Positions 32,493 to 62,944 of a DNA stretch of 64,000 bases are shown here, one piece after another (positions within the stretch are counted from its first letter, which is position 1; every line of letters begins with the position of its first letter). The notes under the pieces were generated by a model that saw only the letters and a program-made list of their open reading frames with translations, was not told the origin of the DNA and did no database searches. A program made the translations under genes and the position numbers. Source of the stretch: a virus; IMG/VR virus record IMGVR_UViG_3300045988_141926, positions 380 through 64,379 of that record. One strand, 5' to 3'.

Positions 32493-33557
32493 TTATAACT
32501 GTTTGCCCTTGTTTTTGGCATTGCGGCATTTTTTACAAATACTATAATAACCATCTTTACTAGTTTTATTTTTGCTAAAATATTTATTATGTGCTAATTT
32601 AATTTGCCCACAGCGACTACATTTTTTATATTTACCTTTTGCTTTATGTAAATAGTAATCATATAGGTATTGGTCTTCAGCCGCTGAAGCGATTAATTTA
32701 GGAATTTTATTGCGCCATAAACTAGAAATATATTCTAAACTATGGGTAATATTAAATTCCTCTTGGATTCTCTTTTGGATGTCTATATTCTATAATCCAT
32801 CAATTTTATATTCAACTATTCTGTCATATAGTGGATAATCTTTAAGAGCGATGGTACATAAATTATCAAAATCTTCCATAATATACCATAAATCTCTTTC
32901 AAAATCTCCCCAACTATCTTGTTTTAAACGAGAATAATTACATAAAATTGCAGAACATACTCTAGGATCTAATAGTGAAATGCCATCCGGGATTGGATAA
33001 CCATCATCATCAAAAATGCAAGTTGTGTCCTCTAATGGAATAAAATTTCTTGAACGAGTAATTTTAGTCATAATAATTGGACGACGAACCGCATTTTTAA
33101 TAACATACTAATCTTTACGCATTTCAATAATAGCACGTTTAATTATAAATGCTTCGCGTCCTTCACTAACTCGTAATTTGGCTTCCCAAGTAGTAATGGC
33201 GTCTCTCAACTATTTTAAATGAGGTATTTCTTCTATATCTTTTTTAGTAATTGTAATTTTAGGCTAAAATATTGTATTTTTATTTTCAGTAATTAAATTA
33301 TAAATTCCATCTTCGCCATTCTCAAATTGGGAAACAAGACCTTCAAAAGATGTTTCACGTTTATTAACTGTTGCCATACGATTATCAGTTAATAGTTTAC
33401 GCTCCTTCTTCTCTTGTTTCTCCATACAAAGAATGATATAGTCCCCTAATATTTCTAAATATCGAGGAGAGGGGTCTGGGGTTTCCTCTAATATTTTCTT
33501 GACTAATTCATTTCTTTCTTCTGGAGTTTGTAAGGAATAATCTAATTTTATCATCAT
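32493..33557 (-). CDS. First gene of the late operon (~354 aa), C-terminal Zn-ribbon
   Basis: ATG at 33557 with SD GGAGGT. C-terminal CSRCGQ...CKKC motif. The frame continues through TAGs at 33264 and 32790. Confidence 0.4.
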
Positions 33558-33725
33558 TACCTCCAGATTTTTTTACGTCTTCATTATACAAAAAATTTTT
33601 CCAGGTGTCAAATTTTAATAAATGCATTTAAAAAATTTTTAAACGATACTATTAATTGGAAAAAATTTGACAATAAAAAAAATTTTTTGTATTATTATTA
33701 TAATAAAAAATAAAAGGAGAAGTTT
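33558..33725. promoter_or_regulatory. Divergent promoter region between the late operon and the plus-strand block
   Basis: ORF-free and AT-rich. Contains TTGACA...TATAAT upstream of the 33726 gene. Confidence 0.45.
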
Positions 33726-34124
33726 ATGGTAATTGCTATTGTTATATTAAGTATATTATTAATATTATCTATTATATATAATATATTGTTTACAAAGGGA
33801 GTAGTTAAACTTCTAGACCCTGAAACTATTGAACAAAAATATAATTTAATAGCAGATTATTATGAAGATGCAAATAATATTGAAGAAAGTTTCCCTTGTT
33901 GTTTACTATTACATCTTCAATTTAATGCGAAGGAATTCGCAAAAATCACAGACTTCTCTAATTATGAAAATTCTAATATAATCGCTTATTCAGTTTTGTC
34001 CAAGAGCCCACCACCGCCTGGATACGCAAATCAATTAGAGAAAGACGGCTCTATAAGAATATTAGTCCGCAATGTTCGAGTAAATAAATATAAGGATGGT
34101 GAATATTTTTGGGAGCCTATGTAA
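33726..34124 (+). CDS. Membrane-anchored hypothetical protein, 132 aa
   Basis: ORF with an SD. Hydrophobic N-terminus. Confidence 0.5.
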   Translation: MVIAIVILSILLILSIIYNILFTKGVVKLLDPETIEQKYNLIADYYEDANNIEESFPCCLLLHLQFNAKEFAKITDFSNYENSNIIAYSVLSKSPPPPGYANQLEKDGSIRILVRNVRVNKYKDGEYFWEPM

Positions 34125-34315
34125 TTGTTATCTTTTGGATAATCATTTCAGCATTAGTAATGTTTGAATATATTGATGCAATTCAAAGCGCCGGTGAAAA
34201 TAAATTAATTGTTTGTTTAATATTTTTTATTGGTGGCCCAATATTTGCTGCGAGTGATTTATTACAAAGAATTTTAGATATATTTTTACCGGAAGGGTGG
34301 AATGGTGATGACTGA
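34109..34315 (+). CDS. Small membrane protein, 68 aa
   Basis: Hydrophobic ORF. Confidence 0.4.
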   Translation: MGAYVIVIFWIIISALVMFEYIDAIQSAGENKLIVCLIFFIGGPIFAASDLLQRILDIFLPEGWNGDD

Positions 34316-34334
34316 AAAATAGATTAAATATATT

Positions 34335-34625
34335 TTGAAAAATTTTAAACGAGGCACTATTATTCTATTTATGGGTGTATCATTTAATCAATATATTAAT
34401 CTTGAACAATTAACTGAAGCAGGATATACTTGTATCCTATTGGGTGAAGGTCAAGATTATTGGCCCTATATTAAAAATAATATGATTATTTATGTGGATA
34501 ATATTGATACTAAAATAAATTGTTATCCACTACATTGTCCTATTTTTGTATATAATAAAAATCAAGTTATTAACGCGGAAGATAGAGATGTGCGCGTTTG
34601 GGCAGAAGTGTTAAAAGAGGAGTAA
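34335..34625 (+). CDS. Hypothetical protein
   Basis: ORF. Confidence 0.4.
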   Translation: MKNFKRGTIILFMGVSFNQYINLEQLTEAGYTCILLGEGQDYWPYIKNNMIIYVDNIDTKINCYPLHCPIFVYNKNQVINAEDRDVRVWAEVLKEE

Positions 34626-34626
34626 T

Positions 34627-34920
34627 ATGAAGATTTATAAATATTTAATTGAAACTCCAGGGTCAACTCATATTATGGACCATTTAACTGATATTGTATC
34701 TACTGGATTGGATGTAAATAATAATCCATGCGTATGGGCAGTTTATGATGAAAAGGCACCTGAAAAATATTTCCAGATTAATGCTGTTGGTACAGGTTGG
34801 GAATTGGATAAATATGTAAATAATAATGACAAGTATTTAGGAGTTATTAATGATGGTGAATATATTTGGCATATCATTAAGTCTTCTGGAGAAAAATGCC
34901 ATGTAATGGAGGAGAAGTGA
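34627..34920 (+). CDS. Hypothetical protein, 97 aa
   Basis: ORF. Confidence 0.45.
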   Translation: MKIYKYLIETPGSTHIMDHLTDIVSTGLDVNNNPCVWAVYDEKAPEKYFQINAVGTGWELDKYVNNNDKYLGVINDGEYIWHIIKSSGEKCHVMEEK

Positions 34921-34924
34921 TTTT

Positions 34925-35242
34925 ATGGAAGATGGAAAAAATTATTTTGATATTGTAATGCGAGAAGGCCAAGCAATAGTTCATAATGAAGGTTCTATTC
35001 ATTAGGTTGATAGTTTAGGCCGTCTTGTTTTTCCTAAAAATTTAAGACAAAAATATGGTATTGCTCCTGGCGACCGTATGGAATTTTATACTATTGAATA
35101 CAATGGTGAAATTTATGTTGGAGTGCGAGTGAGTAAACGATATGGTAGTAGAATAGAGTATTTACGCGCTAAAGAAGTATTAGATGATTTAGGAATTGAA
35201 ATTCCTCAAAAACTAACTGATGCTATTAATGGAGTAATATAA
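34925..35242 (+). CDS. AbrB/SpoVT-family DNA-binding protein with an in-frame TAG at ~35003
   Basis: VDSLGRLVFPKNLRQKYGIAPGDRMEF matches the AbrB swapped-hairpin domain. The TAG falls at the conserved RKVD position. Confidence 0.55.
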
Positions 35243-35244
35243 TT

Positions 35245-35388
35245 ATGCCTAAGTATAAAAGTTTTGGTAATGCACTTGCCGCTAAGATGCAGAAAAAAGC
35301 TAATTATTATGCTACTAAAGCAGTTCATCAAATTGTATGGGGTGAAAACCCTAAACGTGGTCGTCCTAAGAAGGAGAATAAAAAATGA
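35245..35388 (+). CDS. Small basic protein, 47 aa
   Basis: ATG after the TAA. Ends in TGA, overlapping the next ATG. Confidence 0.35.
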   Translation: MPKYKSFGNALAAKMQKKANYYATKAVHQIVWGENPKRGRPKKENKK

Positions 35389-35468
35389 TTCTTGAAGCAT
35401 TAGCATTAATAGGATTAATTTTATTTTTTCCTATTTGGTTTTTTGGTAGGAATAAAATTAAAAAATAA
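35385..35468 (+). CDS. 27-aa hydrophobic peptide
   Basis: MILEALALIGLILFFPIWFFGRNKIKK. Confidence 0.3.
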   Translation: MILEALALIGLILFFPIWFFGRNKIKK

Positions 35469-35530
35469 TTAAAAAAGTTCTACCGTTATCCAAATTGAAA
35501 AAAGTTCTACCGTTATCTGAATTGAAAAAA
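35469..35530. repeat. 2x ~25-bp direct repeat (aattgaaaaaagttctaccgttatc)
   Basis: Direct repeat. Confidence 0.6.
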
Positions 35531-35853
35531 GTTTTGGTGAGAGTTTGTACCAGCCAAACAAAAAAATAAAAATCAAAAAAAATTTTTTCCCGAAACCCAC
35601 CCCCCCCGGTCGGTTTTTATCTGAGAAAAAATCTGAACACTATCGAGGCCTTCTTGGGCTTGGCGCACGCGGAAAGGCTAGACCATCCCCAATACAGCCC
35701 CTCAACTCACAGGACCGCGAATGGCTGTCGCGGTCCTCATTCGCAATAAATACAAACTCCACAAAAAATCTCTCGCAAATTTGTGTATTCTGCCAATAGA
35801 CAAGCATCCTGAAATCTGGTATAATAGTATCATCAATCAAGGAGGAATAGTCT

Positions 35854-35949: not shown

Positions 35950-35977
35950 GGGAGGTTTTTTGTTGCCCTAAGATTGT

Positions 35978-36780
35978 TAAAAATTTAACAATGTAGCAAG
36001 ATTGTTAAAAGATTAACAATGTAGCGAGATTGTTAAAAATTTAACAATCACTCAACCAAGAGAAGACAAGGACACGCACGGCACAGTAGACAAGGCAGAG
36101 CGAGCCAACGAGCGAGCGACCAACAGACAAAGAGAACAACACACAACACAACACAATGATAGATACATTGTTAATGTATTAACAATGTAGTATAGTAGTA
36201 TGGTATGGTAGGGTATGGGTGGGGTGGGCTATGGGTAGTAGGTAGGGAGAGAGAGTAGGCCGACAATAAGAGAATGGAGCGCGCTTCCCACCGGTCGGGT
36301 ACACCGGGAACCGCGCACGATAAATCTAATGTAAGTATTCTATTTCTCTTTTGGGTTCATCATCGTTAACGGCCCTAATCGCCCAAGAATAAGCCCTCGC
36401 ACAATTGCCAAACAATACAGCGGCGCAGGCGCTGAACAGCGCGTATCCCGCAACACACAGCTCTCACAGAGGGGCGAGCAAGATTGTTAAAAATTTAACA
36501 ATGTGAGAGCCAAGAGCAAGAGAGTAAAGAGTGCGCTTGCACAGGTAGCAAGGAGGACACGCACGGCACAGTTGATACATTCGCTGACCGAGCAAGATTG
36601 TTAAAAATTTCACAATGTGTGGATGTGGTGAATGTGCTGTTTAATTGTTAAAAATTTCACATTCGCTGTTGGATGCCGAACACGGTCGCAACGCCCCAGA
36701 CTTCACCACATTAAAGTGTTAAAGAAAAAAAATCGCAAATCCGATTGTTAAAATAATCACAATCTTCGTCCCGAAAATAA
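35978..36780. repeat. ORF-free region with at least 8 copies of the 18-bp palindrome TTGTTAAA-NN-TTTAACAA, plus direct repeats and G-runs
   Basis: Copies at ~35981, 36008, 36035, 36166, 36483, 36596, 36644 and 36742, plus 37862. Also holds a T-depleted segment (36062-36155) and a C-depleted G-run segment (36188-36285). Confidence 0.7.
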
Positions 36781-43704: not shown

Positions 43705-44448
43705 ATGGACTATTACGTTTACATAACAACAAATAAAATTAACGGCAAACAATACATTGGGTAGCACAAAGGACGCCCAGACGATAACTATTTAGGTAGT
43801 GGAACAACTATACTAAAAGCAATCAGCAAGTATGGCAAGGAGAATTTTACTAAAAGTGTTTTGTGTTTTTGTGAAACAAGAGAAGAAGCCGACGCAAAAG
43901 AACGAGAATACATCCAATTATACAACGCAGTAAATGATGATAATTTTTATAATAATGCGGAAGGTGGCACAGGTGGAGACGGCTGGCGCAGTTGTCAAAG
44001 ATGGCTGGAACAACATCCAGAAGAAGCGCAAGCCATGTATAAACGAAATGGGGAACATTTGCGGAAATGGTGTGATACTCATCCAGAAGAATACAAAGAA
44101 AAATGTATTAAGCCAATGTTAGAAGCAAGTCATAAGCGATTAAAAGAAAATCCTGAACTCGTTAAACAACAAGTAATAAGATTAAATCAGGCAAAAGAAA
44201 AATGGCAACAAGAACATCCAGAAGAGCACCAAGCACAAGTAAATGAATGGCGAAAGGCTGGAAGTATTGCTAATAGTAAAGCAGTAATTTGTTTAACTAC
44301 TAATCGTGTATTTGAGTCTCAATCAGCGGCGGCTCGATACTATGGCGTTCCACAAAGCAACATTAGTAAATGTTTGAAAGGAGAGCGTAAAAGCGCGGGA
44401 GTAGACCCTGATACGGGTGAAAAATTATTTTGGGAATTTGTAAAATAA
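43705..44448 (+). CDS. GIY-YIG homing endonuclease with a NUMOD-like C-terminal helix-turn-helix. In-frame TAG at ~43762
   Basis: YVYITTNKINGKQYIG-TAG-HKG matches the GIY-YIG motif. C-terminal region ...QSNISKCLKGERKSAG. Confidence 0.7.
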
Positions 44449-50472: not shown

Positions 50473-50871
50473 ATGGCTGACATTTCCAAAACCGAATGGC
50501 TGAAAAACGCTATGGCGAAAATGGGCTGGACTGCCGATGAAGCGGAAGCCGTGTGGAACTCTGACCGAGAAATCGACAAGGGTAAGAAACAGGATTTTGA
50601 CCTGTCGAAAGAACAGCTTAAAATCGCCCAAAAATTCGCCAAGACTGGCACACGCAAGACCCCCACCGCATACAAATTCACCACAAGGGAACGCAAGGCA
50701 AATCCCACAAAAGCGGCTATTATCGCTGAATTGGCAACATTTTTGACCGAAAATAGCGAAAATGCCTGCGAAAATGTGGAAATTACCAACAAAGAGCGTC
50801 AAATTGCGTTCAAAATCGGTGAAAACTCCTATGAACTGACGCTTGTGCAGAAGCGCAAGCCGAAAAGTTGA
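50473..50871 (+). CDS. Cassette gene B2, 132 aa
   Basis: Shares PTAYKF-RERKAN with B1. Confidence 0.55.
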   Translation: MADISKTEWLKNAMAKMGWTADEAEAVWNSDREIDKGKKQDFDLSKEQLKIAQKFAKTGTRKTPTAYKFTTRERKANPTKAAIIAELATFLTENSENACENVEITNKERQIAFKIGENSYELTLVQKRKPKS

Positions 50872-50921
50872 GAAAATGGGGGAGAAATCCCCCATTTTCC
50901 CCGGAAATCGAGGAAAAAAGT

Positions 50922-51266
50922 GTGAAAAACAAGGAATTTTTGTATGTTGGACACTATTATGATGAAAATGGCGTCTACATTCTGAAAATAGGCACGACTA
51001 ACGACTTAAAGCGCAGACAGCGAGAGCATACACGAAACTACAAGAAATCGCCTGTTTACCGTCTACCGAAAACTGGCAAGTTCATTTACGATTTTTCGCT
51101 ACCGCTCTCCAAGTACAATACTCTACGCTACGAGGACAAAAACCGTGAACGCTGGCAAAAACTGGGATACGGCGAGTTTGTGAGAAATGACAGATTTGCG
51201 TGTCCTGTGAAGCCGAAATCTGTTGAAATTACCATTCGTCGAACTTACCAAATCGCTCTCGATTGA
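50922..51266 (+). CDS. Small GIY-YIG domain protein (~115 aa, GTG start)
   Basis: FLYVGHYYDENGVYILKIGTTNDLKRRQREH. Confidence 0.5.
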   Translation: MKNKEFLYVGHYYDENGVYILKIGTTNDLKRRQREHTRNYKKSPVYRLPKTGKFIYDFSLPLSKYNTLRYEDKNRERWQKLGYGEFVRNDRFACPVKPKSVEITIRRTYQIALD

Positions 51267-51491: not shown

Positions 51492-52100
51492 ATGAATAAG
51501 AGCCAGTTTTTTGACCACGAAATCGAGTTCATTCAGTCCGAGGATTTGCGCTCATTCGTGCGCTATTACTTCGATTGTATCGTTCCCGACTATTTCTGGA
51601 CTATCGGCGCGAGTTCTTCCGGCAAGTTCCATCCGGCTATGAGCCAAGGCGAGGGCGGTTTGGTACGCCACACTAAGGCGGTTGCGTGGTTTTGTGAGGA
51701 ATTGCTCCGCATGAGCCAGTGGGCGTATCTCACTGACGAGCGCAAGGACTACGCAAGAGTTGCCTGTCTGCTCCACGATACAGCCAAGTATGGTTTACAC
51801 GAGTTCGACAAGGAGTTGTACCCCAAGCACGGGGAAATGGCGGCTGACCAAGTACGCCGTTCGTGGCTGGTCTTTTTCGAGAGCGACTGCCCCTATGAGT
51901 TGACGCAAGCCATCAAGTCCCACATGGGTCAATGGACTACCGACAAGGCGAACAGACCTTTCACTCCTATTGATAGGTTGGTACACATGGCTGACTATGT
52001 GGCAAGCCGAGCGTTTATCGACATTCCGGCAATCAACGCTGACTATAACGACAAGGCGGAGTTAAACCAGATTGTGCCTGACCTGCCGTGGGAAGATTAA
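51492..52100 (+). CDS. HD-domain phosphohydrolase, 203 aa
   Basis: H...HD...D motifs. Confidence 0.55.
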   Translation: MNKSQFFDHEIEFIQSEDLRSFVRYYFDCIVPDYFWTIGASSSGKFHPAMSQGEGGLVRHTKAVAWFCEELLRMSQWAYLTDERKDYARVACLLHDTAKYGLHEFDKELYPKHGEMAADQVRRSWLVFFESDCPYELTQAIKSHMGQWTTDKANRPFTPIDRLVHMADYVASRAFIDIPAINADYNDKAELNQIVPDLPWED

Positions 52101-52134
52101 TTTGTTAAGGGTGGAGAAATCCACCCTTAATTTT

Positions 52135-52440
52135 TGTTCATTTTACCTATTGACAAATTGGGCCAGGTGTGGTATACTAAAAGGGGAGGTACAACGGGCC
52201 GAGCGCGGGCGCTGCGGTCCGAATTCCCGATCTGTACCCCCATATGGAAAATTTTCCGTAATTCTAGCGGCCTTCATATGCGCCCATATTTTCCCAAAAC
52301 CCGAGGCACCGCTCGGTACCCATATGCCGCCCGGTTTGACATAAAAAAAAATTTATGTTATAATGATAAAAAAAACCATTTTTTTTCTCACTTGACTTTT
52401 AAAAAAATTTTTTGTATAATATGTATATACAAAATGAAAA
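52135..52440. promoter_or_regulatory. Divergent copy of the convergent-promoter module (copy 8) with a 3x CATATG repeat, followed by two AT-rich promoters
   Basis: TTGACA-17-TATACT, then a GC-rich insert in place of the palindrome, then AT-rich promoters before the 52453 gene. Confidence 0.4.
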
Positions 52441-52452
52441 GAGGTTATTTTA

Positions 52453-52827
52453 ATGAATAAGAACGATATTCTGACGCGCTTAATGAATGGCGAGAGCGCT
52501 GAGGATATTGCTAAGGAAATGACTGCAATGCTGAATGACGCCACTAAGGCATATGCTGACCAGAAGAAGGACAAGGAAAAGATGGCCCGAGCGGAAGCGG
52601 TTGCCGATGCTATCAACGACTATGCGGCCTATATTGGCTACAAGGGTGCAGAGTTGAAGGGCGAGGACGTCATTAAGATGATGGACAGTTTCTTGAAGTT
52701 CTATAAAGACCTTCACAATTTCAAGATTGAGATTCCCGGTTTCCGTTTTGAGACGAGAACTGATAAGCCCACCAAGAAGGGCAAAACCGTAGATGAAATC
52801 CTCAACGACTGGATTTCTCGCATTTAA
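52453..52827 (+). CDS. Hypothetical protein, 124 aa
   Basis: SD AAGAGG. A long hairpin terminator lies at 52838-52900. Confidence 0.55.
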   Translation: MNKNDILTRLMNGESAEDIAKEMTAMLNDATKAYADQKKDKEKMARAEAVADAINDYAAYIGYKGAELKGEDVIKMMDSFLKFYKDLHNFKIEIPGFRFETRTDKPTKKGKTVDEILNDWISRI

Positions 52828-52837
52828 TTTCGAATAA

Positions 52838-52900
52838 CGTGTCGGCCCAGGTATTTTTCATTTGGGAAATTGGCGATTAGAATACCTGGGCTCGACGTTT
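52838..52900 (+). terminator. Long (~15-bp stem) hairpin terminator
   Basis: gtcggcccaggtattt...aatacctgggctcgac followed by TTTTTT. Confidence 0.55.
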
Positions 52901-53214
52901 TTTGGAAAGGGTATCTTGAAAAATTCAGAGGATGACGATAACGATGAAATTGAGTGATGAGTTGGTACCGAGCGGGGGCACCAAACTTCCATTATTTTCA
53001 TCATTCTTTTCATCCCATCATCATTCTACCATAATCATTTTGTTATTAAGAAAAAATATTATAAGGTTTCATTATTCGTTATTTACAACTATATTCATCA
53101 AACCCCGCTAATAGGTTTATTTAATCTAGTTTTATGGAGATAAAACAATAATCAAAAGACTTCGGACTCAAAAAAAAGCATCATAAGTTAAAAAGCATCA
53201 TAAGTCAAAAAAAA

Positions 53215-53250
53215 ATGGAGTGGTTTATCGCCACTCCATTTTTTTTATTC
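53215..53250. terminator. Bidirectional terminator
   Basis: aaaaaaaaatggagtggtttatcgccactccatttttttt. Confidence 0.5.
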
Positions 53251-53628
53251 CTTAAACATCAAATCACTTAAAATGTCATTATATGCTGATTCCAGGAGAG
53301 AATCAACGAGAGTTGAATCAACATTAAGGTTAATATCATTCTTGCCACTCTCATCACCCTCAGGACACACTAGTAGCCTGCCCACCGGCGAGGTTCGCTC
53401 TTGCTTTTTCCAAGGTGATTCCCATTTACGATTTAAACTACCATCTTCACTGATATTCGCAATCCAATAGCCATCAACAATGAGAGCATTATTACAATCA
53501 TACAAGACATAAACATTATCGCCCAAATCATCATACTTAGAGCGCACAATCACATCTCTACCTTTATAATTGCCAACTCTCTTACCATATTTATTTTTTA
53601 ATACATCATAACTGAATTCATTTTTCAT
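53245..53628 (-). CDS. Hypothetical protein, 127 aa
   Basis: ORF ending in TAA. Confidence 0.45.
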   Translation of the reverse strand: MKNEFSYDVLKNKYGKRVGNYKGRDVIVRSKYDDLGDNVYVLYDCNNALIVDGYWIANISEDGSLNRKWESPWKKQERTSPVGRLLVCPEGDESGKNDINLNVDSTLVDSLLESAYNDILSDLMFKE

Positions 53629-53805
53629 TTTTCATTTCATTTTTTCATTTCATTTTTCAAAATATCTACTCCCACCGGAGTTTTTCAAATGAAATTCCAA
53701 AATGGCACCTCCTACTTTTATATATAAATATTATATAATAATTTTATATATAAATCAAGTGCCATAATATTGCCCCAGGGTACGGGAACGAAGTCCCTGT
53801 CTGTC

Positions 53806-54286
53806 ATTTATTATAAATCTTATAAAATATATTATTTAATGCATCTCCTGCTTCTTCTGCACTACATCCCATAGCATTTACTTGTTTACTCAAATCCAAT
53901 AGAGAATCAAATATAGAGACATAACTATTATCATAAATATTATTAGGCTAAGCATAATCTGTCGTATCACTATTATTTATATAATCATTATCTTGATGAT
54001 ATCCAGTAGAACGAAAATCTACATTTAACTTTTGATTGCCCTTTCCGCCATAAACAACACCCTCGGGAGGTGCGAAGGGGCGGAGCTCCTCTGCGAAACA
54101 AATCTTTACTGGTTTATAGTTGTTAGGTAATACAAAATAAATTGTATCATCTTTTAAATATGTTTCTACTTTAATTGCCTTTTCAGGTACTTCTTCTTTA
54201 CAGCATCTTTGAAAATGCTTTACATACTTACTATTTACTTCCACAGGAATACTATATTCTCCATTTAATCCACTATGATAACCCAT
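53806..54286 (-). CDS. Hypothetical protein (~160 aa) with one in-frame TAG
   Basis: The fragment ORF 53948-54286 continues through a TAG to a TGA at ~53806. Confidence 0.4.
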
Positions 54287-54465
54287 TTTTATTTCTCCTT
54301 TTGTTCTTTATTTTTGTTCTCGTCTCTACGATTTTTACATCGGGAAAATTCCCAATGGGATTAAATAAGCCGGCGTCAGCCGGATTATTTAAGCCCACCC
54401 TCTATTGCCACAAACCTATTTCAACCCTCTATTACTATTTAATAGGTTTCTAAAAATTGACCACT

Positions 54466-54550
54466 TTTATAGAAAATTTTGACCACTTTATCTAACACCA
54501 TCAGAAAATTTTGACCACTTTTATCAGAAAATTTTGACCACTTTATTTAG
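54466..54550. repeat. Iteron array: 4x AAAATTTTGACCACTTT(T)AT
   Basis: Direct repeats with about 20-bp periodicity. Confidence 0.7.
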
Positions 54551-54797
54551 GGAGTTCGTTCTTCACCCACAAAAATTCAAGACACGTCTTATTATCTTCT
54601 AATATTTTTAATCTATAATCTAATAATCCTAAACGTTTAAGAATATCAATAGTATCATCAATTATAGCATTATTAGATGTAGTAGTTGTAGCAATACCAA
54701 TATATTCTTTAATCTATCTAAATGTAGCGATAAATGGCTAAAAACTACTAGTATAGTATTTATTAAACAAATAAATATATATATTTATACTATTCTT

Positions 54798-55172
54798 CTA
54801 AAATACATTCATCATTTTTAATAATGTATTATATTCAATTAAATTAGCTTCTGACCCATCTAATACTGTTAAATAATAATATTCATCGCCTTCATCACTA
54901 ACAAGATTTGAATCAATTAAATAAGAAAAATATTTCGCAATAGTTTTACGAGACATAGCTTTTTCAATAGTTCCATCACTTAATTCACGAGTAAAATCAC
55001 GCTCAATACTAGCCCATTTAACTTTCTTTTTCTCTATTCTACGGCGTGAAGTATTTACATTTTCTCGTTCAGAATTACATTGAAGCCAGGCATATAATAA
55101 ATCGCAATAATCCTTTTCTCGCACAATAGATGTAGTTGATGGCATTTGACGAGAGTTCTTTTTAATAACCAT
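54798..55172 (-). CDS. Small basic protein (~124 aa) flanked by iterons; candidate replication initiator or regulator
   Basis: SD GGAGG. Iteron arrays lie on both sides. Confidence 0.45.
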   Translation of the reverse strand: MVIKKNSRQMPSTTSIVREKDYCDLLYAWLQCNSERENVNTSRRRIEKKKVKWASIERDFTRELSDGTIEKAMSRKTIAKYFSYLIDSNLVSDEGDEYYYLTVLDGSEANLIEYNTLLKMMNVF

Positions 55173-55235
55173 AAATACCAACCTCCTTCCATAGAACAAT
55201 AAAAATTACGCCTTTTCTATTGAATGGTCCTGACC

Positions 55236-55385
55236 AGAATTTTTTAACCACTTTTATAGAAAATTTTGACCATTTTTATAGAAAAAATTACTCTTTTTTA
55301 TAGAAAATTTTGACCACTTTTATAGAAATTTTTGGACACTTTTATAGAAAATTTTGACCACTTTTATATCAAATGACCATTTTTG
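55236..55385. repeat. Iteron array: about 6x TTTTGACCACTTTTATAGAAAA
   Basis: Same unit as 54466-54550, with about 22-bp periodicity. Confidence 0.7.
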
Positions 55386-55467
55386 TCCGACACGGTAAGA
55401 CGCGGAAACGAAATTTCGTTTATCTCAACATTTTTATTCTAAATTTCGCTAACCGCTCTTTAATTGA

Positions 55468-55510
55468 TTTTTAATAAAAATTTTTATATAATATATATAT
55501 AAACAATAAG
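55468..55510 (+). promoter_or_regulatory. Class-II AT-rich conserved promoter, copy 1
   Basis: ttttaataaaaatttttatataatatatatataaacaataag. Confidence 0.45.
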
Positions 55511-55558
55511 AAATGAATTAACAACAGTTCAACTACAACTAATCAGGAGGTAATAAAT

Positions 55559-56014
55559 ATGGATGCTGGCTTTTATCGTTTCGACGTTCATTTCTTCGAT
55601 GGCGCTGAACAGAATGCCCACGGTTTCGTATATGCGAAGAATTACGCGAATGCCGTTGAGAAGGTTTGTGATATGGTTGATGATGAAGACATCGCGGATA
55701 TCAAGATTGAAGGTATGGAGCCCAGTGAAGTCCTCCTGATGCCCGACTGGATTGCCGACAAAATTACCAAGTATGACTACTTTTCCAGCGACTACGCGCG
55801 CGAGGACAAAAATGTTCAATTTAAGAATGTTAATTCTGTGCTGTCCGCAGAAAAGACTGATGAAGTTATGAAGGAGATTGAGAAGCATCTGACCAGTGGC
55901 AACTATGGCCCCTCCGACAAACTCCCTCTGTCTCAGCAGTCTATCGAATATATCAATGAGTGCGTGGCAAATGGTCTCCCTATCCAGATGCCAGACCATC
56001 GTGGTGAAATCTAA
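55559..56014 (+). CDS. Hypothetical protein, 151 aa
   Basis: SD AGGAGG. Confidence 0.55.
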   Translation: MDAGFYRFDVHFFDGAEQNAHGFVYAKNYANAVEKVCDMVDDEDIADIKIEGMEPSEVLLMPDWIADKITKYDYFSSDYAREDKNVQFKNVNSVLSAEKTDEVMKEIEKHLTSGNYGPSDKLPLSQQSIEYINECVANGLPIQMPDHRGEI

Positions 56015-56466
56015 TGTGGCAACGAATCTGTAAAGAGTGCGCCTATTTCGATGATATGCGCTGTAAGATTAGCGGACAACCCGCTATCTCTCACAATATC
56101 GCTTGCGCCTCATTTAGTAGCCAACGCTACGAGTGCGATATTTGCCACCGTCAAATTCACCATACTGAGGTAATCTATGATAGCAAAAGTAATAAGATTG
56201 TTTGTTCAGATTGCTGTAATCGTTTGTCTACGTGTGATAATTGCCATAATGGGAATATCTGCCTTTTTGAAACAGACCCATCACCACTTCCGAAACAAAT
56301 ACAAAAACAAATCCGTCAGGGAAATATGTTCGGACAAACAATCATAAAAAATCCCGAGAGGGTTCGACAGATTTGCGAAGTCAAATGTTCTTGTTGGGAC
56401 AAAGAAAACCAACAATGTTTAAAAACTACTTCCCATTATTGTCCCAACATTCAGGAGGTTATATGA
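56014..56466 (+). CDS. Cys-rich metal-binding protein, 150 aa
   Basis: More than 20 Cys residues in CxxC pairs. Confidence 0.5.
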   Translation: MWQRICKECAYFDDMRCKISGQPAISHNIACASFSSQRYECDICHRQIHHTEVIYDSKSNKIVCSDCCNRLSTCDNCHNGNICLFETDPSPLPKQIQKQIRQGNMFGQTIIKNPERVRQICEVKCSCWDKENQQCLKTTSHYCPNIQEVI

Positions 56467-56708
56467 TATTTACAGTAATGCATAACGGCTCTCCTTACTT
56501 CACCGTCGAGGCCAGTGAAATCATTGGTATTGCCAAAGTCTATAATGGCGAGGTAAATTTCAGCACAGTAATGCTTCTCAAAAATGGCGGTTCCTATAAA
56601 TTTCCTTTTCCCACAAAAGATGAACAACTCAACAAGATTCGCCAGAATTGGCTTCTTGCTCGGACTAAAACAAATTTTCCTACGCCTGATGTAATCATTG
56701 ATGTGTGA
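56463..56708 (+). CDS. Hypothetical protein, 81 aa
   Basis: SD GGAGG. ATGA overlap. Confidence 0.5.
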   Translation: MIFTVMHNGSPYFTVEASEIIGIAKVYNGEVNFSTVMLLKNGGSYKFPFPTKDEQLNKIRQNWLLARTKTNFPTPDVIIDV

Positions 56709-56758
56709 GCACGTTGGGCAAAACTATTAAATTTAACAAAACTGACCAGGAGGAGCGT

Positions 56759-56956
56759 ATGAAACGTAAGGGCTACGACATCTACATCGGCAAACGTGGA
56801 GCGATTTATTACCTCGAAACTATCGAGGAAACTAATCCTCTCGTCGCAGATACCTATGCCTATGATAAGGCACTCGACAAGTTTGGCGATATTCCAGAAG
56901 TAGTATGGAAAGCAATCCCGGCAGTAATTTGGATACCGGAGGATGGAAGAGAATGA
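56759..56956 (+). CDS. Hypothetical protein, 65 aa
   Basis: SD AGGAGG. Confidence 0.5.
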   Translation: MKRKGYDIYIGKRGAIYYLETIEETNPLVADTYAYDKALDKFGDIPEVVWKAIPAVIWIPEDGRE

Positions 56957-57171
56957 CACTATTTAAAATTAACCTTGAAGACTGTGGCTGTTTCTGTATT
57001 GACCTTGATACCATTAGTTCATTCTATATCGGCTTCGGCAATAAACTGAAAATTCTCCCTATCGGAGGGTCTGACTACATTGCCCCTATTACGATTTGCC
57101 CGCAGGATGCTAAACGTCTTGTTGAAGCCTGGGAAAATAGACAGGAGCGCATTAACAATGGAACTCTATAA
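56953..57171 (+). CDS. Hypothetical protein, 72 aa
   Basis: ATGA overlap. Confidence 0.45.
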   Translation: MTLFKINLEDCGCFCIDLDTISSFYIGFGNKLKILPIGGSDYIAPITICPQDAKRLVEAWENRQERINNGTL

Positions 57172-57532
57172 TCTCTATTCATATATTGAAGTGGTCGATG
57201 ACCCTGATACATTTGTATATTTATGGTCGGCTCACTACGACAATGCCGAAGCCGCCCAATCAGATGCTTGGAACGAGACTTGTCTCCGTTATGAAGAGAA
57301 TGCCAAAGAATTCCAGTTGCCTGACTACGATGAAATGATTGAGCGACTCCAAGAGTTCGAGCGGTCAAGAGGTAGGCCAGATACAATAGATAAGAAAATG
57401 ATGGACCACGCAATTGAGTTAGCCATTGAAGCGCGTGATGATTGCATTGATTATTACGTAGTACCCGCTCGACTTGATGAACGAGATTACGAAGACCTCG
57501 TAGTAATAGATGCTGATGAATATAATCTATAA
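57158..57532 (+). CDS. Acidic hypothetical protein, 124 aa
   Basis: ORF. Confidence 0.5.
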   Translation: MELYNLYSYIEVVDDPDTFVYLWSAHYDNAEAAQSDAWNETCLRYEENAKEFQLPDYDEMIERLQEFERSRGRPDTIDKKMMDHAIELAIEARDDCIDYYVVPARLDERDYEDLVVIDADEYNL

Positions 57533-57620
57533 TTAAATTTGCCACGATTTTCACCACCTTATATTTCTATTATCATTATACCAAATAATTTTGGAAAAAT
57601 CAATACAAGGAGAATTGAAA

Positions 57621-57902
57621 ATGGCTGTTAAAATCCGCAAAGCGTTTACCATTATGCCCGATTCCCTCAATGATGACCAGCGCTATATTTTCCACGGCAT
57701 CGACCGCGCAGAAGCCGAAGAGATTTGTCTCGCATTTGTCGAGGAGCTCTTGGATGATGATATCCAGATGTGCCAGCGCGCTGAACACTATCCTGAGATT
57801 ACGTGGTGCCCTGATTGGTGGAAGGATGTTGAGCCTGACCTTCGTCTCTGTGAATACGATTCATTCGTATACGAAACCTCAATTTACGATTTTGGACACT
57901 AA
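57621..57902 (+). CDS. Hypothetical protein, 93 aa
   Basis: SD AAGGAG. Terminator at 57905-57940. Confidence 0.5.
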   Translation: MAVKIRKAFTIMPDSLNDDQRYIFHGIDRAEAEEICLAFVEELLDDDIQMCQRAEHYPEITWCPDWWKDVEPDLRLCEYDSFVYETSIYDFGH

Positions 57903-57943
57903 TATATAAGAGTATTTGGCGATGCCAAATACTCTTATTTGAT

Positions 57944-57979
57944 TTTTTTATAAATTTATAATATAATATATATATAAGA
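57944..57979 (+). promoter_or_regulatory. Class-II AT-rich conserved promoter, copy 2
   Basis: tttttttataaatttataatataatatatatataag. Confidence 0.45.
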
Positions 57980-58001
57980 TGAAGAAAGGAAATGATACAA
58001 A

Positions 58002-58244
58002 ATGAATGATATTGTAATGCGTTTCAGAACTGAGCACGGCCAGACTATTGAGATGACTATGAATGACCTCAAAGATGCATACGACGAGTATCGTTTCCTG
58101 ACTAAGCGTGAATATATTCTTGAAAACTATCCTGAGTCCGAGGCTTGCGTGGACAGAATCGCCGCTCGTGCCATCGAACTCGAAGACAGTTATCATTATC
58201 GGGAAGACGACGCAATCGAACAGGCGTTCGATGAGATTATGTGA
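58002..58244 (+). CDS. Hypothetical protein, 80 aa
   Basis: ORF. Confidence 0.5.
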   Translation: MNDIVMRFRTEHGQTIEMTMNDLKDAYDEYRFLTKREYILENYPESEACVDRIAARAIELEDSYHYREDDAIEQAFDEIM

Positions 58245-58256
58245 GGAGGATGCGCT

Positions 58257-58487
58257 ATGAAGTGGCATTTGTTTTCTGAGAAGCGGCCTGAGATTGGCAC
58301 TGATGTTCTCATCTGTTTCGAGCCGGGCAATCCTTTTGCCTGTGATGTGTGTAGCCTCGAAGAGGAAGGCGAAGGCCACTATGTTTGGTGGCGCCTTGAA
58401 AAAAGTTATCCCGTTGATGATACTGATTATTGGGCTGAGATTCCGATGCCTCAGCTGAGAATTCCCGCATATAAGGAGGAGGATTAA
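58257..58487 (+). CDS. DUF551-like phage protein, 76 aa
   Basis: KWH...W...IPMP pattern. Confidence 0.35.
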   Translation: MKWHLFSEKRPEIGTDVLICFEPGNPFACDVCSLEEEGEGHYVWWRLEKSYPVDDTDYWAEIPMPQLRIPAYKEED

Positions 58488-58489
58488 CT

Positions 58490-59233
58490 ATGATTGAAGG
58501 TCTCTACCCGCCGTTCCAGCACTGGGGCGCGTCCGGTACCACGTGGATTCTGAGCGATACACATTTTAATGACCCTGACCTCATTCACGCCTATGTTGAC
58601 CGCCCCTCCGCAGAAGAGCAGGTGAAGCGCATCAATGCTAAGTGCGGTCGTGCGGATACGCTGATTATCCTCGGCGATGTTGGCGATATCTCCTATGTGC
58701 GTCAGTTGCGCGCCAAGTATAAGATTCTCGTGATGGGCAACCACGACTCTGGCGCATCCAACTATCAGCGTCAGATTTTCAGACAGAAGTTTGATAAAGG
58801 CCTGTTCCAGAAGCACGAGGCATTGGACGAGATGAAGCGTCTCTATCCTGATTGCGCTTATTCTATCACTGATAGTTATGATTATCTCGATAATTTTCCC
58901 TGTTGGGAGGTTCGCGCTGATAATAAACTTTTCGACCAGGTGTTCTCTGGTGTTGTAGTTATTGGAGAGAAATTGATGCTCTCTCACGAGCCTATTAAGG
59001 GATGCGATTGGTGTATGAATATCCACGGCCACGATCATTCTCGCTCTCATAAAAATGATAAATATCATTTCAACGTGTGCGCTGATGTGATTGGCTACGA
59101 GCCCATCAACTTCAATAAGTGGATGAAGGAAGGCCATCTCGCGCCCATCGTATCCATTCACCGCGACACCATTGACAACGCAACGGCTCGCGCACGCAAA
59201 CGAGGGTATAGATTGGGGAGGAAACCCCAGTGA
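58490..59233 (+). CDS. Calcineurin-like metallophosphoesterase (Ser/Thr phosphatase type), 247 aa
   Basis: SDTHF, GDVGD, GNHD, GHDH. Confidence 0.7.
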   Translation: MIEGLYPPFQHWGASGTTWILSDTHFNDPDLIHAYVDRPSAEEQVKRINAKCGRADTLIILGDVGDISYVRQLRAKYKILVMGNHDSGASNYQRQIFRQKFDKGLFQKHEALDEMKRLYPDCAYSITDSYDYLDNFPCWEVRADNKLFDQVFSGVVVIGEKLMLSHEPIKGCDWCMNIHGHDHSRSHKNDKYHFNVCADVIGYEPINFNKWMKEGHLAPIVSIHRDTIDNATARARKRGYRLGRKPQ

Positions 59234-59402
59234 TACTACGCCTTATTCTCCTTATGGTTCTTGGAGGCTCTATTTGTATAGGGATTGAGACAATGTGGCG
59301 CGCGTTTAAAAATGGGAAATGGCCTCTTGGAATAGTAGTAATTTTTGAGGTTATAGGATTTATTCTTATGACTATATTCTTTGTGAAGGAACAGGTGCTA
59401 TA
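59220..59402 (+). CDS. Small membrane protein (~60 aa, GTG start)
   Basis: Hydrophobic. Confidence 0.3.
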
Positions 59403-59579
59403 ATGATTTTTAATATTTTGAACCAACTTCTTCTGTTTATCTTCGGTCTTCTGTTGTTCGCTATTATGCTGAATAATATCGAAGAGCCTTATTTCCATAG
59501 TAAATGGGGCATCATTCTTCCGTTCGTTGGCGCTCTCGCTTGCGCGGCCTGTGTCATTTACAATTTGTTTCAGGGGTGA
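59403..59579 (+). CDS. Small membrane protein, 58 aa
   Basis: Hydrophobic. Confidence 0.35.
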   Translation: MIFNILNQLLLFIFGLLLFAIMLNNIEEPYFHSKWGIILPFVGALACAACVIYNLFQG

Positions 59580-59584
59580 TTACT

Positions 59585-59779
59585 ATGTCTGTTTTTAGCG
59601 TTATTACATTTATTGTTTGTATAATTCTGATTTTTACTTATATGTATCAATCTTATCATATCGTTAAATATTACCGTGAGCAGGGTAGATGGGGCGTTTG
59701 GGCGATTTTGAACATTTTATCTATCCTAATTATCGTGGAGGCCACTGAAATTATGGCGGAGGTAGTACATCTATGCTGA
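59585..59779 (+). CDS. Small membrane protein, 64 aa
   Basis: Hydrophobic. Confidence 0.4.
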   Translation: MSVFSVITFIVCIILIFTYMYQSYHIVKYYREQGRWGVWAILNILSILIIVEATEIMAEVVHLC

Positions 59780-60177
59780 TTACTATTTTGTTTGTAATTG
59801 TATTTATCCTCAGCGCATCTCTATGCTACAAATTCCGCAATCACGATGTTTCTATGGTTCTTCTTTTGCTTGCGGTTATCTGTGCGGTCGGTCTTATTGT
59901 GTGCGGGGCTATGTGTGCCTGTACGCCATATGACTCTGACCTCCGCACCCAAGACGCAATGGATAAGGAGCGTATGCTTCTTGAATTGCGTATTGATGAT
60001 GACTACTGGCGCAAAGACGCACGCCTGACCGCAGAACTTGTCCACGATGTAGACGAATACAATGAATTGGTTATCTCGATGCGCAAGACCTATAACAGTG
60101 AATGGACTTCTTGGTTTGGTCGCTCTTGGATGGCTGACCTAACTACCGTAGAATTTCCAGAAGGAGGATGGAAATGA
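59773..60177 (+). CDS. Membrane-anchored protein, 134 aa (paralog A)
   Basis: Transmembrane region plus a soluble domain. Confidence 0.5.
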   Translation: MLITILFVIVFILSASLCYKFRNHDVSMVLLLLAVICAVGLIVCGAMCACTPYDSDLRTQDAMDKERMLLELRIDDDYWRKDARLTAELVHDVDEYNELVISMRKTYNSEWTSWFGRSWMADLTTVEFPEGGWK

Positions 60178-60962: not shown

Positions 60963-61652
60963 TTGATGTTTATGATGATTTTTCCCACCTTACATATTGA
61001 GTTTGAAAAGTGGAAATTTAATAAGGAGTATGGAGTTTGGGTTTCTAACTTCGGCAACTTCAAGGACATTCATAAGCGTCCTATTCCTAAGAAAATCTTC
61101 CAGCAAAATGGTTATGTGTCTGTGAAAACCAAGCACGGCAATCGTATGGCGCATCGCTTGGTTATGTATACGTGGTGCCCCATTGAAGACCGCGAGGCGT
61201 TCACTGTTGACCACATTGACCACAATAAACGTAATAACCGCGTTGACAATCTGGAATGGGTCAGCCAGGCTGAGAATCTGATTCGAGCCCAGGATGACAT
61301 TGTGGTGAGTGCTGTTCCTACTATTAATAATGCGGGCGCCGAACCCGCCGGTCGGGACACTGGGAAAATTCTGGAAGAGTGCGACAATACTCTGGCCAAG
61401 TGGCTTGCCACTACCACGGACACCACTTGCCGTTCCTTTATCGTTCAGGAGGGTATCACTCTTGATACTGTTTTTACCAACACTGATGGTTTTAAGGGTA
61501 CGGCGATGGAGGCTATTGACTGGCTCCAAAAGCATAACTCTAAGGTCAGCACTACCGAAGAGAAGTTCTTCTTCAAACTGTGCAATAGCATCCGTATGGA
61601 CGGTTTTATGTATTCTCGTAAGTGGAATTTTTTGAGAGGAGTTAAACAATGA
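60963..61652 (+). CDS. HNH homing endonuclease with a NUMOD4-like N-terminus, 229 aa
   Basis: WVSNFGNF, HRLVMYTW, VDHIDHNKRNNRVDNLEWVSQAEN. Confidence 0.7.
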   Translation: MMFMMIFPTLHIEFEKWKFNKEYGVWVSNFGNFKDIHKRPIPKKIFQQNGYVSVKTKHGNRMAHRLVMYTWCPIEDREAFTVDHIDHNKRNNRVDNLEWVSQAENLIRAQDDIVVSAVPTINNAGAEPAGRDTGKILEECDNTLAKWLATTTDTTCRSFIVQEGITLDTVFTNTDGFKGTAMEAIDWLQKHNSKVSTTEEKFFFKLCNSIRMDGFMYSRKWNFLRGVKQ

Positions 61653-61945
61653 GAGTAGCAATTTATGCGACTGAACCTTATTATGGTGGGCTCCACGGAT
61701 ATTTCAACTGCGGTATCTACCACATTGATATGTTTAGTGAGGCTGATGAAATTGGTCATTATCTGTGTGATGAACTGATTGATAGTTATACTACACTGAC
61801 CGATCTCTACGAAGATGGCGAACGTGAGTATGATTACGCAATCTATGAAATCCCTAATGCGTTCGATGATATCGACGATGACCAGCTCGACGCCGACCTC
61901 TATGACTACGGTTTGAGCGGTTTTATCAAGAAATATTCTCTCTAA
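61649..61945 (+). CDS. Acidic hypothetical protein, 98 aa
   Basis: ATGA overlap. Confidence 0.5.
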   Translation: MRVAIYATEPYYGGLHGYFNCGIYHIDMFSEADEIGHYLCDELIDSYTTLTDLYEDGEREYDYAIYEIPNAFDDIDDDQLDADLYDYGLSGFIKKYSL

Positions 61946-61948
61946 TTG

Positions 61949-61985
61949 ATTTTTTTAAAAATTTATAATATAATATATATATAAG
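61949..61985 (+). promoter_or_regulatory. Class-II AT-rich conserved promoter, copy 4
   Basis: tttttttaaaaatttataatataatatatatataag. Confidence 0.45.
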
Positions 61986-62008
61986 ATAAAGGAAGGGGAA
62001 ATCAAACA

Positions 62009-62197
62009 ATGTATCGTACTGTTGAAATTTGGGATGACGATGATGTCGTTGAGACTGATTTTGATACCTATAATCAGGCATTTGCCCTGTATGCGCATCG
62101 GTTCTCCTATGGTACTCTTCCTTTTGTTGATTTTCTCATTGTGGATATGAGCACTGGCGAAGTGGTGCTTCAAGCATCGACTGCTAAAATGGTTTAA
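62009..62197 (+). CDS. Hypothetical protein, 62 aa
   Basis: ORF. Confidence 0.5.
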   Translation: MYRTVEIWDDDDVVETDFDTYNQAFALYAHRFSYGTLPFVDFLIVDMSTGEVVLQASTAKMV

Positions 62198-62207
62198 GGA
62201 GGAACGT

Positions 62208-62405
62208 ATGGCTCGTCGAGAATTTCGTAATTTGGCTAAATACTGTGAGAAGACCTATGGGTCTCATTATGAAGAAGATGAGGCCTGGTTCATCTGTCCT
62301 GAGTGCGGGGAACCTATCTACTTCGATGATTGGACTGAGGAAGAGACTCACGGCTGGGCGGATTGCCCCATCTGTGAAACCAATCTGTATGAGGATGTGG
62401 AATAA
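62208..62405 (+). CDS. Zn-ribbon protein, 65 aa
   Basis: CPECG...CPICE. Confidence 0.5.
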   Translation: MARREFRNLAKYCEKTYGSHYEEDEAWFICPECGEPIYFDDWTEEETHGWADCPICETNLYEDVE

Positions 62406-62581
62406 TGAAGATTTGGTATGAGCGCACTGTTCGCAATTTCATCAATGTCCCGTGCGATTGGCCGGAGTCGAAGATTTATAAATACCTCCGCGAGAATACC
62501 TGTGGCCCGTATGATGATTTGGCTTGGTGGTATGATAAGGAGATTGTCGAGGGTGATGAAGATGAAGATGAAACTTTCTGA
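62405..62581 (+). CDS. Hypothetical protein, 58 aa
   Basis: ATGA overlap. Confidence 0.35.
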   Translation: MKIWYERTVRNFINVPCDWPESKIYKYLRENTCGPYDDLAWWYDKEIVEGDEDEDETF

Positions 62582-62768
62582 TAATTTTAAATGGCGAGAT
62601 TATTGTAATAAGTTGATGGACTTGGATATGGCGCTGGAACGTCTGGATGGTTTGTTTGATATGGTTAGCGTGGCGATGTACGAAAAGGAACTTGAAGAAG
62701 CCGAGTATGACATTCAGCGCATTTATGAGTTCCGCAATTATATTGACAAAATGTTGGAGGGCAAATAA
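62562..62768 (+). CDS. Hypothetical protein, 68 aa
   Basis: SD GAGGG. Confidence 0.35.
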   Translation: MKMKLSDNFKWRDYCNKLMDLDMALERLDGLFDMVSVAMYEKELEEAEYDIQRIYEFRNYIDKMLEGK

Positions 62769-62944
62769 TGAATATTCCTACTACTGTTAATAAGGTCGAA
62801 GCCAATGTTTGCCTGTTGAATATTCGGACTGAGATTGATGCCTTGGTCAATCACGGCGAACTGGATAACGATGAAGGGTGCTATATCGCTCACTGTCTGG
62901 ACATCATCGACACCTATATCAATCGGGGTGATGCGGAATGATGA
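62768..62944 (+). CDS. Hypothetical protein, 57 aa
   Basis: Overlapping stops and starts. Confidence 0.35.

Follow-up and report, generated by a model that had tools for sequence, protein, structure and literature searches.

A tandem winged-helix gene between two iteron arrays in a TAG-recoding gut phage: a candidate initiator-and-origin module

The replication origins of large uncultivated gut phages that reassign a stop codon are essentially unknown, and in such phages they have so far been guessed from guanine-plus-cytosine (GC) skew only (10.1101/2021.08.26.457843). Analysed here is a 64,000-nucleotide stretch of viral DNA (positions 380 to 64,379 of the IMG/VR virus record IMGVR_UViG_3300045988_141926), hereafter termed the window, the first letter of which is position 1 in all coordinates below. 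Its subject is a module in which the gene of a protein with two winged-helix domains stands between two arrays of directly repeated sites, or iterons. The module is given about an even chance of being a self-contained, autoregulated initiator-and-origin cassette of the iteron type. Being compact, conserved, and testable, it offers a protein of ~25 kDa, a defined site, natural specificity variants, and a 1.3-kb fragment.

The winged-helix gene and its flanking arrays

The initial annotation had recognised a small basic protein gene at 54798-55172 (124 amino acids). These limits do not hold, as that open reading frame (ORF) is the front part of a 209-residue gene on the minus strand (Table 1), the translation of which runs through three in-frame TAG codons at 54798-54800, 54738-54740, and 54714-54716. 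The small form is thus an artefact of the standard code, and the protein is indeed basic, but only mildly so (isoelectric point 8.6). Public gene calls contain the identical 209-residue product, 530 homologues were found, and conservation is strongest in the stretch beyond the first TAG. Relatives place TAG at other glutamine (Gln) positions; among these are codon 9 and codon 31, and all family members share Gln31. It follows that TAG is a plain Gln codon in this gene. A programmed truncation, in which the TAG at codon 125 would act as a stop to give a protein with the first domain only early and the full protein late, is ruled out by the same observations. Standard-code gene calls split the winged-helix family in half.

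A search of the window with the 22-mer TTTTGACCACTTTTATAGAAAA, allowing up to three mismatches, returned seven matches against none in 100 shuffled sequences, all on the plus strand and all within 54455-54530 or 55242-55373. Its 13-nt core, allowing up to two mismatches, was matched 16 times against 3.7 expected; nine matches fall in the two arrays and the remaining seven are scattered singly, as expected by chance, so that neither scan detected the motif beyond chance level elsewhere in the 64-kb window. Tandem Repeats Finder counted 5.8 copies with a 22-nt period over 55242-55368, along with two copies of period 23 at 54500-54544, and a repeat finder agreed. Counted by eye, the upstream units start at 55242, 55264, 55286 (a degenerate unit, 55286-55307), 55308, 55330, and 55352, followed by a partial copy at ~55370-55389; on the gene-sense strand each reads (A/G)TGGTCAAAATTTTCTATAAAA, and ~65 nt separate this array from the ATG. 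The downstream units start at 54455, 54477, 54509, and 54532, the first of them in gene sense beginning 2 nt past the stop codon, likewise in all close relatives. The scans and the unit count agree with the four and about six copies noted earlier on the two sides of the gene; the sides themselves are reversed in gene sense, with the array of six to seven copies lying upstream and that of four copies downstream. In a scan of IMG/VR, the paired-iteron pattern turned up only beside the winged-helix gene. With the motif confined to this module in 64 kb and the pattern to this gene in IMG/VR, the idea of a genome-wide regulon was dropped.

Several further elements adjoin the arrays. The inverted TGGTC half-site pair TGGTCCTGACCA near the ribosome-binding site is partly kept in three relatives (L001, L002, and L004, as GGTCAGGAACA) and absent in L005-L007; it is possibly an operator, the status of which is uncertain. 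Within the spacer distal to the upstream array, which is rich in adenine and thymine (AT), lie a hairpin-forming palindrome AAACGAAATTTCGTTT at 55406-55421 and a sigma-70-like promoter (TTGATT-17-TATAAT, 55464-55492, plus strand, 10/12 match) that faces the divergent gene at 55559. The hairpin beyond the downstream array is likely a terminator, which would render the winged-helix gene monocistronic. In every relative, even at 26-34% identity, the gene is counter-oriented amid long runs of small genes, and the neighbouring genes of the module in the relatives of the window and in distant loci gave no Pfam match.

Table 1. Coordinates of the module and of the features around it (window numbering)
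Feature	Position	Strand	Remarks
Gene of the 209-residue tandem winged-helix protein	54543..55172	-	ATG at 55170-55172 after GGAGG; stop TAA at 54543-54545
Upstream array	55238..55389	-	six units in strict 22-bp register and a distal partial unit; conserved in L001-L007
Downstream array	54455..54546	-	four units in the same orientation; spacings 23, 32, and 22 bp
Inverted TGGTC half-site pair	55225..55236		between upstream array and ribosome-binding site; read from the sequence
AT-rich spacer distal to the upstream array	55400..55558		27% GC (55400-55599)
Likely terminator	54368..54383	-	GC hairpin, then a T-rich tail; ~70 nt beyond the downstream array
Second island gene (160 residues)	53804..54286	-	one in-frame TAG at 53948-53950; weakly conserved in relatives
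Third island gene (127 residues)	53245..53628	-	no family match
Bidirectional terminator	53208-53246		hairpin, its 16-bp stem perfectly paired and bordered by runs of A and T; at the convergent island end

Fold of the protein and covariation with its sites

A model built by AlphaFold2 from 78 family sequences (predicted local distance difference test, pLDDT, 97; predicted template modelling score, pTM, 0.92) comprises two canonical winged-helix domains, WH1 at residues ~24-112 and WH2 at ~126-203, and the DNA-binding fold presumed in the initial annotation is therefore present in the model. The only structures that align over both domains are the iteron-binding initiators pi of R6K and RctB; the model superposes on iteron-bound pi over 167 residues and on domains 2-3 of RctB over 155 residues. 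As in the Rep_3 initiators, the two domains of the modelled chain are arranged as in the iteron-bound monomer, and directly repeated sites of ~17-22 bp lie in helical phase beside the gene. Rep monomers bind iterons, and RepE contains the domains WH1 and WH2 (PMC4980987). Two winged-helix domains per chain are shared by pi, RepE of F, RepA of pPS10, RctB of Vibrio chromosome 2, and the protein described here, and the asymmetric, directly repeated sites of ~22 bp would fit a monomer touching two successive major grooves.

At the level of sequence families, the matches recurring among the 78 members are to the winged-helix Pfam families Crp, MarR, HTH_24, HTH_36 (15/78 members), TrmB, and DUF6945, and single-domain matches in BFVD include replisome organisers and the N-terminal domains of lambda O (GpO). 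Judged by its sequence, the family is undescribed, having no Pfam entry of its own; a literature search found no paper on the family or on DUF6945 and none linking iterons with recoded (alternative-code) phages. The sole library family covering most of the protein is phrog_3396 (E-value 3e-10, residues 5-186), which is labelled ‘ScpB’; beyond it, the library searches yielded weak matches to winged-helix families. While ScpB is also a tandem winged-helix protein, no SMC_ScpB match in Pfam and no nearby ScpA or SMC gene were found, ScpB is not among the structural matches, and membership of the SMC-ScpAB system is not borne out. The label most likely reflects merely the shared fold and, as the only one available for the family, is probably misleading.

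Conservation of the arrangement was examined in relatives at several distances. Seven IMG/VR relatives (L001-L007), the proteins of which show 60-72% identity along their full length, have an array on each side of the gene, built on the core TGGTCAAAAWTTTCT with a spacing of ~22 bp; within the 7-12 kb of each locus, the core is confined to these arrays. More distant relatives, at 26-40% identity, likewise have arrays on both sides of the gene, of a different sequence. The absence of repeats from relatives sharing the gene had been named at the outset as an observation that would speak against the module; all relatives examined have the flanking repeats. The family comprises more than 200 clusters at 50% identity on gut-metagenome contigs, which are phage-like wherever their length permits judging. 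A tblastn search of a plasmid collection returned no family match, and one of GenBank phage records a single match at 29% identity, on an unannotated human-faecal contig.

Comparison of the relatives further revealed that the two blocks of the iteron vary independently, the first following the recognition helix of WH1 (residues 75-87) and the second that of WH2 (residues 168-180). In the group of the window, TGGTCA+TTCTAT is accompanied by the WH1 helix SRKTIAKYF and the WH2 helix TTSNNAIIDD. The site TGTTAA+TTCTAT of L037 goes with SRQTVSTKF and TSSNDIIVTD, and TGTTAA+TTAGAC of L014, L019, L022, and L024 with SRQTxSTKF and TRSN(N/D)(D/E)xxxN, such that the WH2 pattern T[TS]SN[ND]xI..D stands against TRSN[ND][DE]xxxN as TTCTAT does against TTAGAC. 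These three site classes provide good comparative evidence for the predicted binding of the repeats by the protein, with one half-site read per domain.

Placement of the gene within its genome was obtained from two independent assemblies, in which it lies near mid-contig and in the same orientation (~112 kb of L030, 201,425 bp; ~113 kb of L004, 197,006 bp). The near-equal coordinates suggest fixed genome ends, for example terminal repeats, instead of random circular permutation. Many other relatives lie 0-5 kb from a contig end because the iteron array breaks assemblies, and the short Logan contigs L032, L034, L035, and L036 open within the upstream array, 107-110 nt ahead of the ATG. That a position near a contig end marks a genome terminus was accordingly ruled out, assemblies breaking at the repeat and the long contigs having the gene at their middle.

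An initiator with its origin, and the competing explanations

The kind of system in which an iteron-binding tandem winged-helix protein is encoded between flanking arrays is already known from plasmids and from phage P1, in which repA (61771-62631 of the annotated record) lies between incC (62688-62791, in oriR) and incA (61487-61771), two arrays of the same sense. Five iterons at 21-22-bp spacing make up P1 incC over PrepA inside oriR, as compared with the 22-bp register of the upstream array here; incA consists of nine looser iterons, and copy 9, the one nearest to repA, ends on the last base of that coding sequence, a junction comparable to that of the likewise looser downstream array with the stop codon in the window. 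Both systems also have AT-rich DNA on the far side of the upstream array. The layout of P1 and F, with the gene between arrays of the same sense and the downstream one starting at the stop codon, is hence found in the window. The differences are equally clear. P1 RepA, of 286 residues, is an unambiguous Rep_3 protein (PF01051), as are all of its relatives, whereas the 209-residue protein has no Rep_3 match; oriR contains a DnaA box and GATC (Dam) sites, neither of which was found at the module; parAB stands beside the P1 replicon, and no partition gene stands beside the module; and, unlike repA, the gene requires TAG-to-Gln read-through and is counter-oriented in the early arm of a ~200-kb phage. 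What is new here is the protein family, its genomic setting, and the dependence on a code switch.

In the proposed mechanism, one monomer would occupy each iteron, WH1 reading TGGTCA and WH2 reading TTCTAT one helical turn away, and the strict 22-bp register would align six to seven monomers on one face of the DNA beside the 27%-GC stretch as a one-sided nucleoprotein complex. Were the module an origin, this complex would melt the AT-rich spacer, a candidate unwinding region, and recruit the replisome. The downstream array may form a loop or a handcuffed pair with the upstream one and thereby limit initiation, as incA does for P1 oriR. Binding is further expected to repress the gene itself, given that the upstream array lies between promoter and ribosome-binding site or atop the promoter. 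Among the relatives, a sigma-70-type promoter is located upstream of the array in L003 and overlaps its proximal end in L028, and only ~20 nt separate the array from the ATG in L005-L007, where it almost touches the ribosome-binding site; with promoters and start codon so close to the array, autoregulation is hard to avoid. As the gene carries TAG codons for Gln, the protein would be made only once TAG suppression is active, which would tie its action to the code switch of the phage.

A number of results weigh against an origin at this site. Beginning with the protein, hmmscan against Pfam (E-value up to 1) gave no Rep_3 match for the 209 residues, the matches being DUF6945, HTH_45, and a spurious one; Rep_3 is also absent among the 25 of 53 matched Pfam families listed for the 78 members, and no initiator was returned by a sequence-profile search of the PDB (E-value up to 10). 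A weak point on the other side is the alignment by hhalign of the family with the C-terminal winged helix of P1 RepA (P-value 1.2e-4, probability 55%) and with a 23-sequence Rep_3 alignment (P-value 5e-4, probability 31%); it covered WH2 only, at probabilities of 31-55% that fall under any accepted threshold. The fold and domain arrangement are initiator-like, since the two-domain model matches initiators, and Rep_3 membership by sequence is not established at such profile probabilities; of the comparison with winged-helix and Rep families foreseen in the initial annotation, the former part came out positive and the latter yielded the weak WH2 alignments. A further departure from Rep_3 systems is the lack of host-factor sites. 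The inverted half-iteron operator that dimers bind at the rep promoter in those systems has a possible counterpart in TGGTCCTGACCA, a pair degraded in L001, L002, and L004 and missing from L005-L007. No DnaA box (up to one mismatch) was found across 52023-59804, hence none in or near the module, and DnaA boxes were discarded as one of its parts; nor does a helicase, primase, or loader gene stand beside the winged-helix gene in the window or in distant relatives. TAG suppression is thought to be late in these phages, and their replication genes are variably recoded (10.1101/2021.08.26.457843). A need for late TAG suppression is awkward for a primary origin, and a lytic phage of 200 kb has no evident need to control its copy number as P1 does. 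The covariation of sites and helices, moreover, extends to three site classes only.

A rival origin candidate within the window adds to these points. The cumulative GC-skew minimum, confounded as GC skew in the window is by transcription direction, falls not at the module but at the junction of the two divergent gene arms (33.6-36 kb), where four DnaA-box-like 9-mers lie within 1.4 kb (34134, 34493, 34523, and 35486, that at 34493 being exact) together with a 27-bp direct repeat in 2.5 copies at 35467-35533. Counted up to 36.3 kb, the region also takes in three 28-bp units, each with a 20-bp palindrome, as a further origin-like or operator-like feature. The junction at 33600-35540 is thus a candidate for a competing primary origin or a regulatory hub.

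The phage-encoded replisome organisers lambda O and SPP1 G38P offer another comparison, in that they are winged-helix proteins binding repeats near or inside their own gene, in line with the BFVD and HTH_36 matches. Proteins of this type are produced early, their genes precede those of helicase loaders, and a C-terminal recruitment domain takes the place of a second winged helix; none of this was seen at the locus of the window. Their origins, in addition, are internal to the gene and do not bracket it.

A locally acting autoregulated transcription regulator or insulator, devoid of any role in replication, is the main alternative to the origin, possible though doubtful. Such a protein would coat both arrays, loop the 0.7 kb between them, and shut off its own gene, and it may control the promoter at 55464-55492 or block transcription entering the counter-oriented gene. 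The sequence affinity of the domains to MarR, Crp, TrmB, and ArsR-type regulators speaks for this role, as do the position of the upstream array in a divergent promoter region ~90 bp from the 10/12 sigma-70 match, the counter-orientation of the gene in runs of small genes in every relative, the promoters adjoining or overlapping the array in L003 and L028, and the lack of DnaA boxes and replisome genes nearby; the need for TAG suppression would suit a late factor that switches off the early operon. On the other hand, MarR- and Crp-type factors have one winged helix per chain and bind palindromes as homodimers, whereas two are found here per chain along with asymmetric, phased direct repeats, the likeness of WH1 being at the domain level. 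Simple autoregulation does not usually involve a second array such as the conserved one at the stop codon, and with the motif absent from other promoters of the window, the regulon would shrink to the winged-helix gene and perhaps its neighbour. Also, the structures matching both domains are initiators, not regulators. The initial annotation had offered a replication initiator with its origin or an autoregulated DNA-binding protein; the P1-like layout and the two-domain initiator matches speak in its favour, the gene limits and Rep_3 membership do not stand, and origin and local regulator are not separated by the evidence. Even as a regulator, the protein would be unusual: a factor acting as a monomer with two domains, its own gene flanked on either side by phased arrays of direct repeats.

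Two structural roles for the arrays were also weighed. That they are partition or condensation sites of a centromere-like or genome-organising module, with the protein as an adaptor akin to ParR, TubR, AspA, or a ScpB/kite-like protein, is quite unlikely: phased direct-repeat arrays are typical of plasmid centromeres and the phrog_3396 match spans residues 5-186 at 3e-10, but no ParA, ParM, TubZ, SMC, or kleisin gene stands beside the module in the window or in any relative, as a ParABS, ParMRC, or TubZRC system would have, and ScpB is not a sequence-specific DNA binder. Least probable of all, a packaging (pac) site with a small-terminase-like recognition protein would resemble SPP1 pacL/pacR or the hexamer repeats flanking the cut site of P1 pac. 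Repeated boxes on either side of a recognition-protein gene are known from pac sites, and late expression, which packaging proteins share, is implied by the TAG codons. The gene is, however, ~24 kb away from the large terminase (29519-31252), the upstream ORF of which (31254-32450) holds the usual position of the small terminase (TerS); the tandem winged-helix monomer is unlike the oligomeric TerS fold; and, at ~112 kb of 201 kb and ~113 kb of 197 kb, the gene does not lie at a genome end as expected of a terminase and pac locus. An RNA element or a transfer RNA (tRNA) was dropped as an explanation, a tRNA search and an Rfam scan of the window having found no tRNA and no family at gathering score.

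Should the initiator-and-origin reading of the module be correct, it would supply a first genetic handle for these phages, as a replicon or vector backbone, and a case of a code switch gating DNA replication instead of lysis. A bolder and rather unlikely extension holds that the module is the founding example of an undescribed phage initiator family, remotely related to Rep_3 if at all, with a P1-style double-array origin built into the early arm of ~200-kb gut phages in which TAG is recoded. Origin firing, a switch of replication mode, or copy control would in that event be coupled to the code change, and the classes of half-sites and helices would amount to a readable recognition code.

The two arms of the window and the AT-rich island

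The window divides into two arms. The late arm (1-33.6 kb) carries minus-strand genes at 23-42% GC (mostly below 33%), with an ORF coverage of 0.35-0.65 that rises to ~1.0 once TAG is taken as a sense codon and up to 56 in-frame TAG codons per gene; its contents include the large terminase, virion proteins, and a phage sigma factor at the head of the arm. The early arm (33.7-64 kb) consists mostly of small plus-strand genes at 40-51% GC past ~36 kb, with in-frame TAG nearly nil. The 209-residue protein recurs in identical form on metagenome contigs as long as 201 kb, and close variants of it are encoded on contigs measuring 195-201 kb, so the window is part of a TAG-recoding phage of ~200 kb; a DNA-level search of known phages showed no similarity to the window. 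The sigma-factor gene (32493-33557, minus strand), the first of the late arm, matches phrog_5767 (E-value 1e-53) and contains four in-frame TAG codons, and this late transcription factor would likewise need TAG suppression.

The AT-rich 2.6-kb island among GC-rich blocks that had been described around the module proved to be real, with 20-39% GC at ~53000-55600 against 38-48% in the flanks, a contrast also seen in most relatives (L002, L004, L014, L019, L022, L024, and L028). In strand, base composition, and use of TAG the island agrees with the late arm, yet it is located within the early arm. Read-through of TAG, annotated earlier at 53806-54286, was likewise confirmed, the 160-residue gene having a single such codon (Table 1). 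Neither this protein nor the 127-residue one received an assignment from Pfam and PHROG searches. An ATGAAA-rich tandem repeat (AAAATGAAATGAAAAA, two copies, 53617-53659) overlaps the start of the 127-residue gene, and a 17-bp tandem repeat (AAAAAGCATCATAAGTT, 2.3 copies) directly precedes the hairpin with the 16-bp stem (53173-53246 together). Distant relatives have similar repeats, rich in AAAATGA(A/T), at a distance of a few hundred bp downstream from their winged-helix gene (L025, 4987-5040; L019, 5125-5285; L010, 4748-4804).

Minor features of the early arm were noted as well. At its GC-rich start, three tandem 28-bp units (35970-36048) each contain the 20-bp palindrome ATTGTTAAAAATTTAACAAT, and a fourth, related palindrome, CATTGTTAATGTATTAACAATG, lies ~120 bp further on (about 36168-36189); by their sequence, the palindromes of 35970-36189 look like a set of repressor operators. 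Three genes of probable homing-endonuclease type are found on the plus strand (43705-44448, 50868-51266, and 60963-61652); two of them are GIY-YIG-like by eye, one has a precomputed Pfam match to HNH_3, and that at 43705-44448 has one in-frame TAG. Finally, an early-promoter-like motif, TAGACA(A/G)..N..TGGTATAAT (a -35 element with an extended -10, e.g. 35797-35825), is repeated through 36-53 kb and suggests, from its sequence, that a Firmicute-type host RNA polymerase may serve the early arm; the same motif appears in spurious ORFs as the pseudo-peptide ‘LPIDK..WY’.

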